Positions 2,583-32,469 of a stretch of 64,000 bases of DNA are shown here, in pieces. The notes below the pieces were generated by a model, which was not told the origin of the DNA, did not search any database, and saw only the letters and a program-made list of their open reading frames with translations. Location: positions 32,001 through 96,000 of IMG/VR virus record IMGVR_UViG_3300036770_008700; one strand, 5' to 3'. The position numbers were made by a program, and so were the translations under genes. The stretch comes from a virus. Positions within the stretch are counted from its first letter, which is position 1; each line of letters starts with the position of its first letter.

Positions 2583-3025
2583 GTAAAGAAACATTTAAAC
2601 CATCAAAGAATGCTGCCGAAATGTTAGCAGAAATGCATGACATGAGTGATGAAGAACTTGAATGGTTTAGTGATATGGGAATGGGTATTGCTGCCACAAT
2701 GGAAGACTTAACCGCTCAAATTGAGAATCCACCAAAAAAGCGTGTTAAAGGCTGCGAAGTGATTCACTTGGGAGCAGAGTTGTTTTTACCAATGCGTGCC
2801 TTAAAACAAAGGCTAGAAGCCGGTGGTTTAGAACTAGAAGATTATGTCCGAGAACTTGACCAAATTGTTGATAGGTTGAGTTTTGTTGTAACAGAAAATC
2901 AAAAAGTACTAAGCAACCCCAAGGTTCGTAACCATATGAAACAATTAGCAAACGCTGTTGTGCTTCACCTGGAAGCTGGTCCAGTGCTCAATAATATGTT
3001 TGGTATTCTTAGTCAAGAACAGTGA
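2579..3025 (+). CDS. hypothetical protein (helical)
   Basis: Likely start MSKETF at 2579, coupled to upstream stop. Confidence 0.7.
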   Translation: MSKETFKPSKNAAEMLAEMHDMSDEELEWFSDMGMGIAATMEDLTAQIENPPKKRVKGCEVIHLGAELFLPMRALKQRLEAGGLELEDYVRELDQIVDRLSFVVTENQKVLSNPKVRNHMKQLANAVVLHLEAGPVLNNMFGILSQEQ

Positions 3026-3044
3026 CAGGTCATGTTTTGTTCAA

Positions 3045-3479
3045 CTACCCCAATCCTGGCGAATAAACGATAAAGTTTTCAAAACTAGCTGAACCTGTGT
3101 GATAAGGGTCACTTGCATTAAATGTGAATGACCCCGTAAGCGTTGGTATGCTTGCTGTTGGAATGCCTGTTAATCCAGCTAAAATCTGAAAATTAACTGA
3201 TCCGCTGCCACTTGGTTTCTTAAGATATATTTCTTTTACACGAACTTCAAATGTAGCATATCCATTGCTACCGATTGTAAAATGATTGGAATTACTGACT
3301 CCGAACGCTGTAAATCCAACATCTAAAGAACTAGTATTGGAATGAATCGTTATAAACTTGGTAACGTAGGGAAAGCTTATTTTAACTGGCGTTGTTGAAG
3401 CAGATGATGCTGTAACATATGGCAAACCAGATGCTAGGTAAGCTGGAACATCATTATAGCCGGGAGAGGGATATTGCAT
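3045..3479 (-). CDS. putative virion structural protein, paralog of 3483-3902
   Basis: Beta-rich, S/T/G-rich; shares SGLPY, FPYVTKFIT, TFEVRVKE and AGLTGIPTASIPTLTGS with neighbour. Confidence 0.7.
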   Translation of the reverse strand: MQYPSPGYNDVPAYLASGLPYVTASSASTTPVKISFPYVTKFITIHSNTSSLDVGFTAFGVSNSNHFTIGSNGYATFEVRVKEIYLKKPSGSGSVNFQILAGLTGIPTASIPTLTGSFTFNASDPYHTGSASFENFIVYSPGLG

Positions 3480-3482
3480 AAA

Positions 3483-3902
3483 TCAACCGATACCTTCATA
3501 AGTTAAAACATTAGTGAATGAATTGCTGCCAGTAAAATAAGGATCAGACGAGCTAAATGGATATGAGCCTGTGAGTGTTGGAATGCTTGCTGTTGGAATA
3601 CCTGTTAATCCAGCAATGATATGAAAAGTATGAGCACCATCAATATACATTTCTTTTACTCGAACTTCAAATGTAACGGTATCATTGTTGGAAATACTGA
3701 AATAGTTTGTCCCTGCAACACCGTTTGCTGTGAATCCAATCTTTAAAGATCCACCGTCAGCTTTCACTGTAATAAACTTGGTCACGTAAGGAAACTGCAC
3801 ATGATATGCAGGTGCTGATGTTGCGGTGCCTGTGAGAGCATATGGTAGTCCAGAAATTTGATAAGCTGGAGTAAAGTTAAAGCCGGGCTGTGGCCATTGC
3901 AT
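3483..3902 (-). CDS. putative virion structural protein, paralog of 3045-3479
   Basis: Same conserved blocks as neighbour; AATAGTTAT motif upstream. Confidence 0.7.
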   Translation of the reverse strand: MQWPQPGFNFTPAYQISGLPYALTGTATSAPAYHVQFPYVTKFITVKADGGSLKIGFTANGVAGTNYFSISNNDTVTFEVRVKEMYIDGAHTFHIIAGLTGIPTASIPTLTGSYPFSSSDPYFTGSNSFTNVLTYEGIG

Positions 3903-3969
3903 GTTGCTTATACCTTTTTTGTTGGTTGAACATAACTATTCAATAAACCAGAAAAGGATTTACAATCTC

Positions 3970-4092
3970 ATGCATGACAAACTTACTCTAGAAAAATGTT
4001 GCTCTGTGTTCGGTGACTCAAAATGGGCACCCCTCGCTGGCTTCCTAGCGGTTACAGAAGGTCTGCAAACCCTACACCACAGTCATCACTAA
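3970..4092 (+). pseudogene. truncated 5' remnant of a Dps/ferritin-like gene
   Basis: EKCCSVFGDSKWAPLAGFLAVTEGLQTLHHSHH* aligns ungapped (18/33 identical) to the Dps N-terminus at 4736 and stops where the HNH gene ends. Confidence 0.85.
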
Positions 4093-4691
4093 CCTTCCCA
4101 TCTATTGTTCTTTTTCAAGTTATCAAACGCTGGAAGAGGTTGTAAATTTTCAAGAGCCCAGCACGCTTTAAACTCTGATGAATCTGTCGAATCGTAATTA
4201 AACCAAGAATCTGGTCTTATGTGGTCGATATGCCAATAAGTTCCATGATTTTCCCACGACATTTCTGGCGTAAATTGTTTTTCTAAATGTTCTTTTAACT
4301 GCTCTAAAGTGTAACCTACAAGATCAATCCAGCTTGTCCTATTTTTCGTTAAAAATCTAGTTTTAAGAGCATGGTTCATTCGTCTGCTCATGTTTTCTCT
4401 TAAACGAAACTGTGGATCAGTTGCTCTTCTTATTCTATTTTGTTCGTTCAGTTGTTCTTTTAATCTTTCACGACGTTCACGTTGCTTTTGAACGTAATGA
4501 TCTCTTCGTTTATGTCTGATTTCTTTCTTTTTCTCACGCAGTTTAACTTTGTTTTTTTGACAATATTCACGGCATGGCTCTTTTCTGCAAATTTTGCATA
4601 TGCTAAGATGGCCATCTTTTGATTTTTTATTTTTGTGATAATCAGTTAATGGTTTTTCAATCGAACACGAACTGCACTTTTTCAACGTCAT
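4089..4691 (-). CDS. free-standing HNH homing endonuclease-like protein
   Basis: N-terminal CSSC/CKIC Zn finger, charged helix, C-terminal WHIDHIRP...LENLQPL...NLKKNN. Confidence 0.85.
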   Translation of the reverse strand: MTLKKCSSCSIEKPLTDYHKNKKSKDGHLSICKICRKEPCREYCQKNKVKLREKKKEIRHKRRDHYVQKQRERRERLKEQLNEQNRIRRATDPQFRLRENMSRRMNHALKTRFLTKNRTSWIDLVGYTLEQLKEHLEKQFTPEMSWENHGTYWHIDHIRPDSWFNYDSTDSSEFKACWALENLQPLPAFDNLKKNNRWEG

Positions 4692-4735
4692 ATACCTATC
4701 TATAAGTATTCTAAAAATAACTTAAAGGGATTTAT

Positions 4736-5233
4736 ATGGACAGTATTGATAATGTTTGGGAATCTATGGTTGAGATCTTTGGTCCAAATGAATATGCACC
4801 ATTAGCTGCATTTTTAGCTGCTACAGAAGCTCTTCAAATGATAGCGCACAGTCACCATTGGCAAACCAAAGGTGAAAACTTCTATGGCGATCACCTTCTT
4901 TATCAACGTCTGTATGAAGCTATCCTGCCTGAGATAGATTTGATTGGTGAAAAACTGATTGGTGTCAGCCAAGATGTTTCTCTTACCAACTACTTCAAAC
5001 GTGTTAAAGCAATGGAAATGTTTCTTAAAGCTGTAACACACAGCGATCAACCATATATTGTTGTAAGCCATGATGCAGAACTAACATACGTTCGTATGGG
5101 TGGCGAACTAATGGACCAACTAGAACAAGCTGGTTTGCTCACAAGAGGCTTGGAACAAATGCTAGGCAACGTTCTTGACAAACATGAAGAACATATCTAC
5201 TTGCTTGACCAAAGAGTTAAAAGCAACAAATGA
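4736..5233 (+). CDS. dps: Dps / ferritin-like protein
   Basis: HSHHWQTKGENFYGDHLLYQRLYE...DLIGEK matches the Dps ferroxidase signature. Confidence 0.8.
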   Translation: MDSIDNVWESMVEIFGPNEYAPLAAFLAATEALQMIAHSHHWQTKGENFYGDHLLYQRLYEAILPEIDLIGEKLIGVSQDVSLTNYFKRVKAMEMFLKAVTHSDQPYIVVSHDAELTYVRMGGELMDQLEQAGLLTRGLEQMLGNVLDKHEEHIYLLDQRVKSNK

Positions 5234-5856
5234 AACTATATCCAATATTATTTGAGCAACAAGAAACAGAGCATCCTTTCTCTCCAGAGTTGTTTGATGC
5301 TTTAAAAGAGTTTGTTGACAAAAACAATATTGAAAAGCTTGAAGCATTGATGCCAGAAATTAAAGAGTTGGTTTCATCAAACAAGTATCCAAATATAACA
5401 GATCCAAGTGATGTTAAAGTATATCGTGGAATGAAAATCAGCTTTAAACGAGCAGAAGAGCTATGCAAAACTTATCAATGCATAGAAGAAGAAACAAGTA
5501 AAAACAACGTTGTTTATAAGACGTTTAAAGGTTCTGTTGTTGTTCCTACTAAACGTAACGTACAAAGTTGGTCTGGAAATGTTAACGTTGGCATTCAATT
5601 TGCTATGGACCCAGAAATTGGTGGTGAAGTTCCAATCGTGTTCTCGGCAATAGCTTCAAAAGACAAGTTTTTCGGTAAGCCGGGAGAAATTGCAAGAATT
5701 GTTTTGCCAAGACGAGCGAGTGAAATGGAAACAATATCTATTTCTCCAGTAGAATCAGATGGTTTTGTTTTGGCAATTCCACCAGATGATTTCTTTGGAA
5801 GGAATCCAAGTTTAACCGATCCATATACCCTCAAGAAATTGACTTTAAAGCTCTGA
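5230..5856 (+). CDS. putative ADP-ribosyltransferase (R-S-E clade, Alt/Mod-like)
   Basis: VYRGM, QSWS...FA and EMETI in the order expected for R-S-E ARTs; N-terminal MKLYPILFE. Confidence 0.6.
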   Translation: MKLYPILFEQQETEHPFSPELFDALKEFVDKNNIEKLEALMPEIKELVSSNKYPNITDPSDVKVYRGMKISFKRAEELCKTYQCIEEETSKNNVVYKTFKGSVVVPTKRNVQSWSGNVNVGIQFAMDPEIGGEVPIVFSAIASKDKFFGKPGEIARIVLPRRASEMETISISPVESDGFVLAIPPDDFFGRNPSLTDPYTLKKLTLKL

Positions 5857-5888
5857 AATTATTTTGACACAAAAGGAGTATAAAACCC

Positions 5889-6542
5889 ATGCTTTTGTCT
5901 GATATATGGAAACTTCAAGGTTCGGCAAAACAAGAACAAGCATTGTTAGAAGAGCTAACTAAAGCTCCACTGGTGTTTAAAGAAGTAACGTTGCAAGACG
6001 CAACCAACGTTTTAGTTCTTCAAGTTACAAATGATTACTTGTGCTTGGAAACCATAAGAGTTTCCTTGTTGCCAGCAACAGCTCAAAAAGTTGCCAACCA
6101 TTTCAATTGTATACTTCCAACCAAAAACCTTGTTGATAAGATTTGGAAAGCTTGTGACTTAAAGTTAAACCCAAAGTCTATGTCAACCAATCGTGGTTCT
6201 TATGACACACTCAAAGCACACAATGACTCAATAAATACTCAAGTAAACAACCGAGAGTTTGTTTTGATTGGTGGTCATAAGAAAGACATTGTAATCAATA
6301 GCAAAATGCCAAAAGGCAAAGTAATCATATATGGCTGGCATTACCCTAATGGTAAACCTATTCAACCAGAAACAACTGTTCATGGTGATTTCTACAAAGA
6401 CTATTCACATGGAACAAGACTTGTAAGTAAAACTGTAATGTTGAATGGTGAAGTTAAAAATATCTGGGATGTGATTAACAGTGCTGTTTGGGAAAAACTG
6501 GTTGGAGATAAACCCTTTTTAGAAACTGGATATAGAGTTTAA
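5889..6542 (+). CDS. hypothetical protein, possibly enzymatic
   Basis: 217-aa ORF with enzyme-like motifs GHKKDIV, IYGWH, PIQP and YKDYSHGTRLV; family not named with confidence. Confidence 0.65.
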   Translation: MLLSDIWKLQGSAKQEQALLEELTKAPLVFKEVTLQDATNVLVLQVTNDYLCLETIRVSLLPATAQKVANHFNCILPTKNLVDKIWKACDLKLNPKSMSTNRGSYDTLKAHNDSINTQVNNREFVLIGGHKKDIVINSKMPKGKVIIYGWHYPNGKPIQPETTVHGDFYKDYSHGTRLVSKTVMLNGEVKNIWDVINSAVWEKLVGDKPFLETGYRV

Positions 6543-6575
6543 ACTTTATCCTTTTGTTTTAAGAACAAATTTAGG

Positions 6576-6698
6576 TTATTTGGTGGTTCGCAATCCACCA
6601 ACACAAATGACCCACGAATCTGTGGCGTCTTTCATTTCTGTGTTGTGGATTTTAGTTGTGTTTGGTTTTCCAATTTTCAGTATATTGTTTTTACTCAA
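6576..6698 (-). pseudogene. displaced 3' remnant of the RuvC-like resolvase gene
   Basis: Hand translation KNNILKIGKPNTTKIHNTEMKDATDSWVICVGGLRTTK* aligns ungapped to resolvase C-terminus KKHVAKTGKSANQEVFNSEMKDACDAWVVVVGGKRLDGIK. Confidence 0.85.
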
Positions 6699-7716
6699 TA
6701 CTGTTTGTGGGCAAAGTTGTAGAAACATTTTCTTTCTCTTCCTGATCTAATAAAATCCAACCCTTATAAGCCTTTCTTTTACCTTTAATCAAATCATGCA
6801 TTGATGATTGAGACAAACCATGTTCTTTGCAGAATTGGTTTAGGTTTGAAATAGGTCCAAAAACTTTATTTGTTGGGGATTGAATTCTCACATCATATGT
6901 ATTGCTTATTTTTGAGATTCTGTCAGTTTTTATTGAATCTTTTGTGATATGCTTATTTTCCAAAAGTCTCCAACCTTGGCAAATTTTAGCATAGCCATTA
7001 ATCATTGATCTAAAGTTTTTATCATTGATTCCATGCTCTCTGCAAAATGCTCTAAGATTAGTGATAGGACCATACTCTTTATTATTCGGGCACACAACCC
7101 GCACATCGTATACTTTTTGTAATTTTTGAGCTAGTAAATCTTTTGCTGGAATGTATGGAATGTCTTTATTTATTGCTAATCTCCAACCTTTACAAGTTTT
7201 TACTTTACCCTTTCTTAACTGCAAAAGATGCGAATAAAATATGTTGTTTTCTATGCAAAATTTACGTAAGTTAACCACCGACACAAATTTACCATTTGGA
7301 TCAATCAAATCTACTGATAGTTTTTTCTTGGAATTCGACAACTTTTGTTTAGTTTGCTCTGAGAGTTTTAAACCCAAATTAGAATAAGCAGTTGGATTAA
7401 TATTGTAACATTCATTTTGATTGTCATAATATTGATCAAGCCAATATTGCTCTCTCTGAACGATGTTGTCAACAGTGCAATGTTCTAAAACACGCATCTC
7501 AAAACTATCAAAATACTTCAAGTATTCTTTTTGCAGGTAAGGGCTTGCTCGTCCTTTTCTTAAATTTGTATTATGCACCCCAAGTCTTTTGGTAATCGAC
7601 AAACAACTTCCTATGTAAATTTTATTGTTTCTGACATTGCGTATTTGGTATATGGCTGGTGTTTTTGGAGTGTATTCACCATTCAATATAATTGGCCCTA
7701 GTAATCTTCTTGTCAT
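6691..7716 (-). CDS. GIY-YIG homing endonuclease with repeated C-terminal DNA-binding modules
   Basis: AIYQI...KIYIGS...R...EQYWLD...YN; NUMOD3-like LSEQTKQKLS; three NLxxFCxExxI...KGW repeats. Confidence 0.9.
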   Translation of the reverse strand: MTRRLLGPIILNGEYTPKTPAIYQIRNVRNNKIYIGSCLSITKRLGVHNTNLRKGRASPYLQKEYLKYFDSFEMRVLEHCTVDNIVQREQYWLDQYYDNQNECYNINPTAYSNLGLKLSEQTKQKLSNSKKKLSVDLIDPNGKFVSVVNLRKFCIENNIFYSHLLQLRKGKVKTCKGWRLAINKDIPYIPAKDLLAQKLQKVYDVRVVCPNNKEYGPITNLRAFCREHGINDKNFRSMINGYAKICQGWRLLENKHITKDSIKTDRISKISNTYDVRIQSPTNKVFGPISNLNQFCKEHGLSQSSMHDLIKGKRKAYKGWILLDQEEKENVSTTLPTNSIE

Positions 7717-7738
7717 GCGAGATAAGTAGTTATACCAT

Positions 7739-8299
7739 TTATTTTATCCCGTCAAGTCTCTTTCCTCCAACGACAACCACCCATGCATCACAAGCATCTT
7801 TCATTTCCGAGTTAAAAACTTCTTGATTGGCACTTTTACCTGTTTTTGCCACATGTTTTTTCCAAGGAAATTCTGGATGTAGTGCTGTGATAAAATCAAA
7901 CACTTTCTCTTTAACGGGACGTTTATCGGCTTTGTTATTCTTAAACCCTACAGCTTTTCTAGCAGAAGTTACGTTAACATCAACAACTTCTGCATTAAAA
8001 GCTTTATGGGAAAGATAGGAAATGATTCCATTAAATTTTGATAAGACTGCAAGTGTATCTGCGCTGCTAAAACCCTTACTAAACATCTTAGCATTAGCTT
8101 CAACATAGATACGTTCTACTTTTTTATCACCAACTAGTTTCTTTATCTCTTCAATACCTCTATCTGCTTTGTCCCACATAGTATGTAGTGTGCTGGAAGT
8201 CAATTTTACAGCATCAAATACAACAACTTGTTCATTTTCATCAACCAAACAAACTCCAGTGCAACTCGTGCTGATATCAAGTCCTAAGAAATATTTCAT
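7739..8299 (-). CDS. RuvC-like Holliday junction resolvase
   Basis: LGLDISTSCTG, IYVE, RKAVG and DACDA catalytic pattern; likely start MKYF at 8299 after aagga. Confidence 0.8.
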   Translation of the reverse strand: MKYFLGLDISTSCTGVCLVDENEQVVVFDAVKLTSSTLHTMWDKADRGIEEIKKLVGDKKVERIYVEANAKMFSKGFSSADTLAVLSKFNGIISYLSHKAFNAEVVDVNVTSARKAVGFKNNKADKRPVKEKVFDFITALHPEFPWKKHVAKTGKSANQEVFNSEMKDACDAWVVVVGGKRLDGIK

Positions 8300-8325
8300 A
8301 TTGATTCCTTTAACATCCCAAACAA

Positions 8326-8841
8326 TCATTCGTCATAAACCTCGCAACCATAAAGACGCCTAATCTTGTCAACTGATTGCTTTGGAATCTTGCACGTATA
8401 ACTTACTTGATAGCAATCTTTGTTTGAAGCAGCTAAAACTACATGGTCTTTCCATGTTGGCTTCATGTTAAGAAACTCAACACCTAGTTGCTGTTGAAAC
8501 AACTCAACAACAGCATTTACCCAGCCCCAGCCGGTTTTAAATGCCATTTGCTTGCCTCGTGGAATATTAATGTTTAGTCGTTGTGTTTTGTAACCAGCAA
8601 TGGTTTCATTCGACCATACAGCTTCATTCAAAGCAATCCAATCATTATTCGAGGTACGTGAGTATGCAGCCGCAAAATCCTTGAGACGACGACCTACTTG
8701 AACATAACATTGTTCTGGCAAAGCATCTACTAATGCTTTTCTTTGCTCGGTCATTGCTTGCTCAAGTGTTGAGTAAAAGTTAACTGTAGTGATTGCTTTG
8801 TCTTTATTGCCAACAAGCATGTAATACGATTTTTGAATCAT
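8326..8841 (-). CDS. hypothetical protein
   Basis: 171-aa ORF with aaggag SD. Confidence 0.7.
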   Translation of the reverse strand: MIQKSYYMLVGNKDKAITTVNFYSTLEQAMTEQRKALVDALPEQCYVQVGRRLKDFAAAYSRTSNNDWIALNEAVWSNETIAGYKTQRLNINIPRGKQMAFKTGWGWVNAVVELFQQQLGVEFLNMKPTWKDHVVLAASNKDCYQVSYTCKIPKQSVDKIRRLYGCEVYDE

Positions 8842-8882: not shown

Positions 8883-9185
8883 TTATAAACCAATATCAAA
8901 ACATTCATTATCACACCAATCATCAGGAACAAAAATCCATCCAAGCTGTCCATTGTTTGAAAGAACTTTTAAACAATTTCTATCTCGCTCAATCAAACAG
9001 AATATACTCTTTGGTTCAAGATAAGAAACGTTGCAGTTTAAATGAAATGAATAATATTTGGCTGCATCGCTGGTGTCTCGAAGACTACATCGTCGAATAG
9101 CAATGCTGCTGTGTAGGATACTATCTTTTGAAGGATACAACAACCAAAAGTATTCCTTGATTTGATAAAGCTTTCCAACATTCAT
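8883..9185 (-). CDS. tandem 'GKLY' paralog 4 (most divergent)
   Basis: MNVGKLYQ..YFWLLYPSKD-[variable]-YYS..CNVSY..PKSIFC..G.LGWI. Confidence 0.8.
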   Translation of the reverse strand: MNVGKLYQIKEYFWLLYPSKDSILHSSIAIRRCSLRDTSDAAKYYSFHLNCNVSYLEPKSIFCLIERDRNCLKVLSNNGQLGWIFVPDDWCDNECFDIGL

Positions 9186-9475
9186 TGGTTTACTTCCTCA
9201 ATATAGTTCTTGTCCTTGTAAAAATCAGAAAGATAAATCCAACCAAGCTCACCATTAGTTGAAAGGATTTTACAGAACTTACCATCTTGCTCCAAAAAAC
9301 AGAAAATGCTTTTTGGAGAAATATATGAAACGTTGCAGTTATATTCCTTGCTATAATAAGCGGCGGCGGAGGCGGTGGTGTCGAGGGAGGCGAAGAGGAA
9401 GGCGTCAGCAATATCCTTTGAAGGATAAAGTAACCAAAAATACTTCTTGACTTGATAAAGCTTTCCGATGTTCAT
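9182..9475 (-). CDS. tandem 'GKLY' paralog 3
   Basis: Same scaffold; ATGA overlaps with both neighbours. Confidence 0.85.
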   Translation of the reverse strand: MNIGKLYQVKKYFWLLYPSKDIADAFLFASLDTTASAAAYYSKEYNCNVSYISPKSIFCFLEQDGKFCKILSTNGELGWIYLSDFYKDKNYIEEVNQ

Positions 9476-9768
9476 TGATTTACTTCCTCAATATCGGCTT
9501 TGCACCAATCAGCAAGATTAATCCAACCAAGTTCTCCATTAGTTGAAAGAATCTTGCAACAATACCCATCTTGTTCCAAGAGCATAAAAATGCTGTTTGG
9601 AAAAATATATGAAACGTTGCAGTTGAAACGCTTGCTATAATAATCAGCGCCCTCTACGGCTTCGGTGAAGGAGGCTCCAGCAACAGCGGGGTAGGTGGCG
9701 ACTTCATCCTTTGAAGGAAAAAGAAACCAAAAGTATTTCTTGGCTTGATAAAGCTTTCCAACATTCAT
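9472..9768 (-). CDS. tandem 'GKLY' paralog 2
   Basis: Same scaffold; ATGA overlaps. Confidence 0.85.
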   Translation of the reverse strand: MNVGKLYQAKKYFWFLFPSKDEVATYPAVAGASFTEAVEGADYYSKRFNCNVSYIFPNSIFMLLEQDGYCCKILSTNGELGWINLADWCKADIEEVNQ

Positions 9769-10061
9769 TGATTTACTTCCTCAATGCAACCCTTTGCCCA
9801 ATCTTTATTTTTTGGATAAATGATCCAACCAAGTTCTCCGTTGGTTGAAAGAATCTTGCAAAATCGTCCATCTTGTTCCAAAAAACAGAAAATGCTTTTT
9901 GGAGAAATGTATGAAATATTGCATTTGAAATACGTGCTCCAATAATCAGCAACAGCGGCGGTGGCGGCGGCGGCCAGATCGTCTTCGGCGGCAGCAATCT
10001 CCTTTGAAGGAAAAAGGAGCCAAAAATACTCCTTGACTTGATAAAGCTTTCCAACATTCAT
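9765..10061 (-). CDS. tandem 'GKLY' paralog 1
   Basis: Start MNVGK at 10061 by homology; upstream TGgTATACT is a likely promoter rather than coding sequence. Confidence 0.85.
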   Translation of the reverse strand: MNVGKLYQVKEYFWLLFPSKEIAAAEDDLAAAATAAVADYWSTYFKCNISYISPKSIFCFLEQDGRFCKILSTNGELGWIIYPKNKDWAKGCIEEVNQ

Positions 10062-31431: not shown

Positions 31432-32469
31432 TTATGCTCCACGATAATATCCACCAAATGCAACAGAATCCGTGCCATACAAAGCAACGTTACCATATGT
31501 GAATCCTGCTGTTGCACTTTTTTGATCTCTGGTTTGTAAGTTTGAATCACTTAAGCTATAATTTTCACTAAAAAATGGTTGTATAATGGAACCAACAACT
31601 TCACCGCTTAAATTAACAACACTGGAAGTAACTTGAACACTCAATAAATCGGTTGTGTTTGTTAGTTCTGGAAAGAATGCACCATTAGGTTGATCAACCC
31701 AAGGTTCCATTTTTGGCTGAACTGTTTGATCCATAACGGCGTTAGGTCTTGTATCAATCACTCCAACAACACTGCCATTGCTAGCTGTAACAAGTATGTA
31801 TCCAGCACCATATTCCAAAAACGAACGAACCATTTTAGGTTCTTCACGATAAACCATTTGCTCAACAATATCGGTACCGAATCTACGTTCATCACCAACG
31901 TTACCAGCTTCTAGAAAAGCATAGACACCACGGATTTGCTCTTGTGGACTTTCGTTGGTTGCAAGACGAAAAGGCATAGGAAACGGTTCTATAATCGATT
32001 CCTCATAAAACTGTGGGCCACCATTCATGTAAATCGGATAAACATCATCTGCGTTCAAATAACCTTCAACAATAAGTCCAGATTCAATCAAGTAGTTTGT
32101 TGTTTTACTTATTCTTTTTCCATCAACCAATATAGTTCCGTCAACACCAACATGTGAATCGTTGAATATGGTATTGGAAGTGTATTGGATATAGTCTCCA
32201 GCTTGACCATATGTGATAAATGCAGACTGATGAGTTAACTCACCATTTGGCTTAACTTCATGGTCTTGTGTTCCATCTTCAAATATAGCCTTGATTTGAT
32301 TAGAGCTGTATATGTCTTGTATTGTTCGTAGGTTGACGCCTTCACGATATATGTCGATTTCTTTGGTTGGCATTCCTCCAGACACAACAAGGTTACGATT
32401 GGTTTTACCGTAATAGTTTGCTATGTCAAAAAACGGTTTAAAAGATGTATCGTTAACCCAGTATGGCAT
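31432..32469 (-). CDS. putative structural protein
   Basis: 345 aa, in operon. Confidence 0.65.
   Translation of the reverse strand: MPYWVNDTSFKPFFDIANYYGKTNRNLVVSGGMPTKEIDIYREGVNLRTIQDIYSSNQIKAIFEDGTQDHEVKPNGELTHQSAFITYGQAGDYIQYTSNTIFNDSHVGVDGTILVDGKRISKTTNYLIESGLIVEGYLNADDVYPIYMNGGPQFYEESIIEPFPMPFRLATNESPQEQIRGVYAFLEAGNVGDERRFGTDIVEQMVYREEPKMVRSFLEYGAGYILVTASNGSVVGVIDTRPNAVMDQTVQPKMEPWVDQPNGAFFPELTNTTDLLSVQVTSSVVNLSGEVVGSIIQPFFSENYSLSDSNLQTRDQKSATAGFTYGNVALYGTDSVAFGGYYRGA

Follow-up and report, generated by a model that had tools for sequence, protein, structure and literature searches.

Homing endonuclease genes of phages sit in an intron or intein, lie between genes, or split a gene, and nuclease-driven homing typically inserts at the most conserved codons. 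A further arrangement is that of the WHO elements of Torulaspora and Lachancea yeasts (PMC7282813; bioRxiv 10.64898/2026.08.13.744650), which the accessible part of the 2026 preprint ranks as a third category beside introns and inteins (10.64898/2026.08.13.744650). Neither text mentions phages (PMC7282813; 10.64898/2026.08.13.744650). The element considered here lies in a 64,000-nucleotide stretch of viral DNA (IMG/VR record IMGVR_UViG_3300036770_008700, positions 32,001 to 96,000; this whole stretch is called the window, and coordinates refer to it). It consists of a 769-base cassette within the gene dps that carries a putative HNH-type nuclease gene together with a new dps 5′ end, and a GIY-YIG nuclease gene adjoins ruvC in what appears to be the mirror-image arrangement.

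According to the available sections of PMC7282813, WHO elements share several features with the dps cassette: the nuclease gene adjoins its target outside any intron or intein; the element brings in a replacement for one end of the host gene; the original end is displaced and kept as a fragment, for which the WHO authors argue a role as homology arm; and the trees of the two gene parts conflict, with high diversity in the replaced part (PMC7282813). The differences, on the same available text, are as follows. WHO nucleases are LAGLIDADG/intein-derived proteins with a zinc finger and homology to HO/VDE, whereas HNH-type and GIY-YIG nucleases are found here. WHO elements replace the 3′ end of FBA1, whereas here one target has lost its 5′ end to a substitute that brings its own translation start, and the other its 3′ end. 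WHO elements act in the meiosis of a diploid eukaryote, where allele-specific cleavage is proven, whereas the present elements belong to a large phage and their cleavage activity is predicted. Compared in this way, the phage cassette is best regarded as an analogue of WHO elements, with no common descent. At both dps and ruvC a substitute end is present, the old end lies in a flanking position and the reading frame is uninterrupted.

End replacement by homing endonucleases is also known from the fungal mitochondrial genes atp6 and rps3, which a preliminary description of this DNA had named as the precedent. In the available accounts of Tremella fuciformis, the mobile insertion carries a duplicate of the N-terminal part of its host gene, and foreign sequence thereby takes the place of part of that gene (PMC7315562; PMC8393795). 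The fungal precedent stands, though not as the sole closest one, as the nuclear WHO elements of yeast work in this way (PMC7282813, available sections). The Tremella cases are described there as introns in organelle genes (PMC7315562). In contrast, the dps cassette contains no detectable intron, its new gene end comes with a start codon and a ribosome-binding site (RBS) of its own, and its nuclease gene is on the opposite strand. The 'fractured genes' of Dassa et al. 2009, which reportedly combine split inteins with an inserted endonuclease gene and whose halves are said to be rejoined by protein trans-splicing, likewise place an endonuclease gene inside a conserved phage gene; here, in contrast, the old end is discarded and replaced, and intein motifs are absent.

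The mob (HNH) and seg (GIY-YIG) genes of T4-like phages, which spread by 'intronless homing', resemble the present element: they are free-standing, some relatives have them and others lack them, their target is a conserved neighbour gene, and repair that co-converts the flanks spreads them, as stated in the accessible part of a review of T4 homing (PMC2988022); MobE acts by a strand-specific nick (PMC2790892, part available). T4-like genes are intergenic or split a gene into two polypeptides, as in nrdA of Aeh1, gene 39/60 and gene 43 (PMC2988022), whereas the present element lies inside a coding sequence, keeps the product as a single intact polypeptide and is flanked by a displaced gene end. 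The string 'duplicat' is absent from the accessible text of the same review (PMC2988022). A literature search found no phage precedent for end-replacing homing, although subscription journals and supplementary files may hold one, and the available parts of PMC10448857, PMC8351571, PMC5871332 and PMC2988022 describe no such phage or virus case.

The working dps gene of the window (4736–5233) encodes a 165-amino-acid protein and is preceded by a displaced copy of the dps 5′ end, the stump, which consists of 40 codons (3970–4089, plus strand) and lies behind a native dps upstream region (3903–3969, plus strand; RBS AAAGGA) that is colinear with the dps upstream regions of two relatives, L001 and L002. 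The open reading frame (ORF) at 3970–4092 translates as MHDKLTLEKCCSVFGDSKWAPLAGFLAVTEGLQTLHHSHH, followed by a stop codon, and aligns ungapped to residues 9–41 of the 165-amino-acid protein with 18/33 identities (54.5%), as the preliminary description had reported. The match has an E value of 1.1e-7 against the 122,895-base genome and of 3e-7 in a separate search, and the resemblance is not accidental. The 3′ end of the stump (4078–4092) reads cac-agt-cat-cac-TAA, the full gene at the corresponding place (4847–4861) cac-agt-cac-cat-TGG. The closing TAA (4090–4092, plus strand) is supplied by the cassette and stands where relatives have TGG.

The cassette spans 4090–4858, and its insertion point falls precisely at the border of the codons for the invariant His41 and Trp42, which are the most conserved pair in dps; its joint is ambiguous by one base (T4090 = T4859). 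The nuclease gene (4089–4691, minus strand) encodes 200 amino acids, and its stop codon (4089–4091) lies at the break within the HSHHW motif, so that all the sequence features previously noted at this break are present. The last base of that stop codon (C4089 on the plus strand) belongs to the final His codon of the target, and either His codon yields a stop (CAC gives TAG, CAT gives TAA). Between the divergent starts of the nuclease gene and the new dps end lies a 44-base region (4692–4735) with the RBS AAAGGGA, which in an alignment shares the blocks TATACCT and ATAACT with native dps upstream regions. The divergent promoter proposed for this region is putative: a sigma-70 promoter scan of 3700–5400 found 0 sites, against 4.7 expected by chance. 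The replacement 5′ end (4736–4858, plus strand; 41 codons) matches the stump at 19/41 residues. The resident dps 3′ part begins at Trp42 (4859–5233, plus strand); its protein is identical to the same part of P0005, a Dps with a stump-like 5′ end. The dps gene is rebuilt from a new 5′ end and the resident 3′ part, and the old 5′ end is kept as the 40-codon stump. A group I or II intron or an intein at dps is rejected, as a search of 3500–8500 on both strands gave 0 Rfam matches at E <= 1, the stump is closed by a stop codon and the new end begins with an RBS followed by ATG; the intron-free occupation of a coding site, earlier proposed for this locus, agrees with these observations. G+C content is 0.31–0.36 at 4150–4750 (nuclease gene) and 0.29–0.34 at 6550–7450 (GIY-YIG gene), with flanks at 0.37–0.42.

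Both the occupied and the empty form of the site are found in public sequence data. The region 3400–5900 is present in 20 public runs from nine studies (three of the nine possibly source studies), and contigs of runs X10, X11, X12 and X13, from four other studies, were aligned to 3000–6600, uncovered parts (e.g., X11 beyond 5300) being left out of the comparison. A 1906-base contig of X12 (depth 16.4) matches 3844–4089 with one difference and then 4859–6519 with eight differences, none of those listed falling in 4859–5233; it thereby omits exactly 769 bases, with a 1-base overlap, and joins stump and 3′ part as one gene in what is otherwise the same phage. Over 3844–4089 the window is identical at 245/246 bases to this contig, in which the stump sequence is the working 5′ end. 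The empty site is a real molecule, because the string shared by the junctions is far shorter than the assembly word. Conversely, the X10 and X13 contigs run unbroken over 3839–6496 with 10 differences each, and the X11 contig covers 3875–4888 with 0 differences; as these contigs span the cassette, the occupied form is not an assembly artefact. X12 also yields low-depth contigs inside the cassette (4168–4381 and 4583–4789; depths 3.4 and 3.0), and X13 a more diverged cassette-free contig. Empty and occupied alleles both circulate, at least once within one sample, and the 769-base unit is a discrete presence/absence polymorphism with exact borders. The joining of 4089 to 4859 in X12 bears out the earlier idea that a unit with the HNH gene and a new dps 5′ end entered the gene and restored it, and the unit is very probably a discrete mobile insertion that replaced the dps 5′ end.

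Relatives of the window show the native structure. Scans for the Dps protein retrieved seven viral and 16 metagenome loci, among which 12 close relatives have an intact 5′ region (L001, L002, L025–L033 and L035); L034 and L040, whose sequences end before the dps 5′ end, are outside this set. In all 12 an uninterrupted dps immediately follows the same upstream gene, its 5′ end is of the stump type and the site lacks an HNH gene; their first 40 Dps residues are 77.5–87.5% identical to the stump (E 1e-19 to 4e-24). HNH-free relatives with a single dps running through HSHHW had been named beforehand as a check, and none of the 12 has both stump and full gene. In nine of nine distant dps loci (31–38% identity) the gene is single and HNH is absent. 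In DNA alignment the window tracks L001 and L002 from the upstream gene to CATCAC, diverges at TAA where they have TGG, and rejoins them in its full dps at TGGCAAACC. A near-identity DNA search of 3000–6600 against a phage collection gave no match, and a protein search of the same region against it gave distant Dps-like genes alone (31–39% identity). The upstream gene (3483–3902, minus strand; 139 amino acids), which stands directly upstream of dps in the 12 relatives at 52–81% identity and has no Pfam or PHROG match, marks the native left border of the dps locus. As a separate observation, paralogous genes upstream of dps at 3179–3839 (139 and 144 amino acids, no family match) hold strongly diverged or replaced blocks between otherwise near-identical strains.

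The distribution of 5′ ends extends this picture. Close ones among 71 Dps homologues fall into two 5′-end types, type A, which resembles the stump, and type B, which resembles the working gene of the window. On a tree of the dps 3′ part made by a quick method from 124 columns and 74 rows (39 type A, 22 type B, 13 other), 13 changes of the A/B label are required, at least five of them imposed by well-supported branches, which constitutes a conflict between element and host gene and is the result to which the earlier proposal of separate trees for the two parts pointed. Two sets of identical 3′ parts include both A and B. All 22 type-B rows sit on type-A-like 3′ parts, and type B occurs on at least five different 3′ backgrounds.

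Exact agreement in size between the longest contigs of type-B Dps proteins and of members of the 90% cluster of the window's nuclease (nine members) served as a proxy for linkage. Such agreement is found in six cases (147544, 56414, 26746, 10460, 6298 and 2759 bases). A search with the stump retrieved two clusters with six other proteins, all exactly 40 amino acids long and all ending in HH[SA]HH, and in three cases (26746, 6298 and 3931) stumps and HNH members agree in their longest contig. The matching contig sizes suggest that the type-B 5′ end travels with the HNH gene and the 40-residue stump. On this size-inferred pairing, type-B ends are more diverse among themselves (identities of 27–30/41, with one near-identical pair at 39/40) than the HNH protein (167–199 of about 200) or the Dps 3′ part (111–120/124), and an HNH protein identical at 199/202 residues to that of the window accompanies a stump of only 31/40 identity. 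Degenerate DNA patterns for the type-B motif gave 0 stretches in viral contigs and 0 in genome contigs, and the window is the sole type-B locus compared as DNA. Separately, the type-A protein P0012 and the type-B protein P0076 have the same longest contig size, 3856, which is either a coincidence or one contig with two dps genes.

The 200-amino-acid protein of the cassette is classified as an HNH-type nuclease on its motif and its PHROG match. It matches PHROG 1035 'endonuclease VII' (E 1.4e-24) and PHROG 2340 'endonuclease' (3.4e-12), one homologue carries the NCBI name 'HNH endonuclease signature motif containing protein', and the HNH catalytic pattern (Asp-His, Asn, Asn) is present as WHIDHIRP...NLQPL...NLKKNN, with C32, C35, D156, H157, N182, N191 and K194 invariant in 76 homologues. 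The AlphaFold model (predicted local distance difference test score, pLDDT, 95.3) shows a CxxC...CxxC zinc ribbon at the N-terminus, then a long helix, then at the C-terminus a unit of two strands and a helix (strands 153–157 and 183–187, helix 188–194). Most of the top Foldseek rows are HNH-type (beta-beta-alpha-Me) nucleases, such as Cas9 HNH, ZRANB3, Hpy99I and colicin E9, with weak E values of 0.47–3; VIA-align gives Hpy99I at Z 5.4 over residues 1–41 only and, weakly, CAD nuclease at Z 4.8 over residues 88–200. A profile search against PDB sequences matches the N-terminal zinc ribbon of Hpy99I alone (E 0.024), and a phmmer search of PDB sequences gave no match. No Pfam match was obtained even at E <= 10 and no NCBIfam match at E <= 1. 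The earlier HNH label needs qualification: it draws on PHROG 1035, the invariant DH...N...N motif and weak structural matches. Full-length cluster members (199–202 amino acids) keep the catalytic motif.

The target protein is assigned to the Dps family from profile and residue evidence. As a single sequence it scores below curated cutoffs (DUF5856 8.5e-6, Ferritin 0.003, NCBIfam Dps 2e-4), the NCBIfam Dps model aligning its residues 23–76 to model positions 33–86. When 23 homologues are combined in a profile, 54 distinct PDB sequences are hit; almost every one is named as a Dps-family protein or a Dps fusion, and the top match, over positions 26–161, has E 5.5e-13. The ferroxidase centre of Dps comprises a His, a second His 12 residues later, an Asp and a Glu, with a conserved Trp after the first His, as in Escherichia coli Dps. 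The spacing of H41, W42, H53, D68 and E72, invariant in the 23 homologues, fits this centre.

A comparable structure is present at ruvC, where the GIY-YIG gene appears to have replaced the 3′ end of its target, the mirror image of the 5′ case at dps. The three parts follow one another on the minus strand: an orphaned original ruvC 3′ end, consisting of the last 22 codons and the stop (6576–6646), identified by DNA identity to L034; a GIY-YIG homing-endonuclease gene of 341 amino acids (6691–7716), with a Pfam GIY-YIG match above cutoff (E 6.4e-10) and a match to TIGR01453, group I intron endonuclease (75.9 bits, cutoff 56); and the resident ruvC with a replaced 3′ end, ...DAWVVVVGGKRLDGIK (7739–8299, which is the extent of the gene and not the right border of incoming DNA). 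The fragment that follows the GIY-YIG gene ends in ...NTEMKDATDSWVICVGGLRTTK. In L034, ruvC is continuous and ends in the same residues as the orphan fragment, next to the same neighbour gene and with no GIY-YIG gene. Its DNA is identical to the window over 6500–6646, and its identity is 99–100% in two genes on the other side and about 82% in ruvC, where L034 ends. The new C-terminal end ...DAWVVVVGGKRLDGIK also occurs in L026, beside a truncated GIY-YIG gene and the same orphan fragment (96%). In L035, a 136-amino-acid ORF (4980–5390, minus strand) just downstream of an intact ruvC (5555–6226) combines the N-terminal zinc-ribbon part of an HNH protein of the same family with some 50 C-terminal residues of an orphaned RuvC. 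It may be a decayed third end replacement, and ruvC would then be a repeatedly invaded site.

These observations point to a nuclease-driven, end-replacing homing element at dps that is active or was so recently, a reading to which we give a probability of roughly three in four. In a mixed infection, the HNH protein would nick or cut cassette-free dps near the border of HSHH and W. The 5′-side broken end would pair with the donor stump as left homology arm, and the 3′-side broken end with the donor dps 3′ part as right homology arm. Repair synthesis would then transfer copies of the HNH gene, the upstream region and the new 5′ end to the recipient and turn the recipient's own 5′ end into the new stump. 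The occupied genome would escape cutting as neither junction recreates the full site of type-A end plus 3′ part. As both homology arms would lie inside the conserved target gene, no homology would be needed in the hypervariable upstream genes.

For self-immunity of the occupied allele, the preliminary description had proposed a recoded, cleavage-resistant target, which comes down to two synonymous His-codon changes. These changes are not diagnostic: in a set of 13 naive alleles the wobble bases of the His codons are free to vary, and one of the set, L035, has CACAGTCACCAT followed by TGG, exactly as the occupied allele does. Compared with the empty form, the occupied junction differs at 10/30 upstream bases (8 of the last 21, 2 of the last 12) and at 0/30 downstream bases, and on account of these upstream differences the occupied allele may resist cleavage. 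Self-immunity may depend on the allele, as it does in WHO elements; alternatively, the enzyme may be a nickase that tolerates its own site. In the naive alleles residues 31–36 are variable (windowed means 0.65–0.71 bits), but residues 57–64 are equally so (0.76–0.83), and a diversity peak at the target is not distinctive for an arms race.

Several points weigh against the homing element. Over the 30 upstream bases, the distance of the occupied junction from naive alleles (5–15 differences) is no greater than their distance from each other (9–14), and naive alleles are about equally far from the occupied and the empty form; sequence alone therefore does not explain self-immunity. Cleavage of dps by the HNH protein, and its target site, are predictions from sequence; the protein is without a Pfam or NCBIfam match and its structural matches are weak. 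The tree of the 3′ part is short and quickly made, and the linkage of HNH, stump and type-B end on other contigs is deduced from equal sizes and not from DNA. Four type-B proteins with long contigs, P0003 (161006), P0017 (34473), P0002 (19048) and P0074 (18192), have no close HNH protein of the same contig size. The contig of P0074 equals in size that of P0089, an HNH protein of 44% identity with a similar catalytic domain and a different N-terminal region. These four may be elements that have lost the nuclease or natural type-B genes, so type-B dps may exist without this HNH gene. Finally, duplication of a gene end across the nuclease gene is absent at 14/14 loci with more distant HNH relatives; the HNH family as a whole does not share the end-replacing design.

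The explanation that best survives beside homing is that the cassette is passive cargo: one illegitimate recombination would have created it, ordinary homologous recombination via the dps flanks would have spread it, and the HNH protein would have another role (another target, packaging or defence) or be inactive. That cleavage is predicted, that the junction is not distinctive among naive alleles, that some type-B dps genes have no matching close HNH and that the phages are mosaic around the locus, with diverged blocks at 3179–3839, all suit it. It accords poorly with the retention of the catalytic motif in full-length HNH cluster members, near-identical HNH proteins beside diverged stumps, insertion at the most conserved codon pair of dps, and the recurrence of the same arrangement with a second nuclease family 2.5 kb away. 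We consider it unlikely.

Still less credible is that the occupied form is ancestral and that the empty site of X12 is a precise deletion between diverged 5′ copies, that is, a loss and not an invasion. Homing elements are expected to be lost after fixation, and a short common string, CACAGTCA, precedes both junctions, as such a deletion would have it; yet the deletion would have to take place between repeats differing at 10/30 bases and hit the border of the His and Trp codons exactly, type A, with the same unbroken gene, is the form of 12/12 relatives and 39/74 tree rows, and type-B ends are scattered on type-A backgrounds. Plain tandem duplication of the dps 5′ end followed by an unrelated HNH insertion private to this genome would leave the expected trace of two tandem 5′ ends with a gene between them, but is the least tenable and largely refuted by the match of the two ends at only 19/41 residues (the stump being 245/246 identical to a working allele), by 0/12 HNH-free relatives with both stump and full gene, by the same breakpoint in six other stumps on different backgrounds, and by an empty site that omits the HNH gene and the new 5′ end as one 769-base unit.

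The virus record measures 122,895 bases with an estimated completeness of 33%, relatives of the window are contigs of 234–363 kb, and the window probably derives from a very large phage of aquatic metagenomes. Two further repeat-rich regions were observed in the record. Four tandem paralogues of a small gene of about 73 amino acids lie at 8921–9991 (minus strand; 45–54% identical, E down to 8e-16), and repeated segments of about 40 amino acids occur in several ORFs on both strands at 17.8–21.4 kb of the record (about 14.2 to 10.6 kb before the window start; E down to 5e-13).

Replacing a gene end would be a fourth way of life for a phage homing endonuclease, and it comes with population evidence. 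If the homing reading is true, selfish elements of a kind hitherto known from yeast nuclei alone occur in bacterial viruses as well and employ two other nuclease families. It predicts allele-specific nicking of cassette-free dps, and the elements may drive an arms race in which replaced gene ends and target-adjacent residues diversify. It also offers an explanation for short orphan gene ends beside nuclease genes, which annotation pipelines ignore, and a mechanism for the chimeric evolution of conserved phage genes; studies of phage phylogeny or pangenomes should treat the 5′ and 3′ parts of such genes separately rather than concatenate them. More broadly, we lean slightly towards the view that large phages host their own 'third category' of homing elements, in which nuclease genes enter the most conserved codons with a substitute gene end and use the displaced end as a homology arm; in this phage group the design would be of independent origin, built on an HNH nuclease at the dps 5′ end and on a GIY-YIG nuclease at the ruvC 3′ end.

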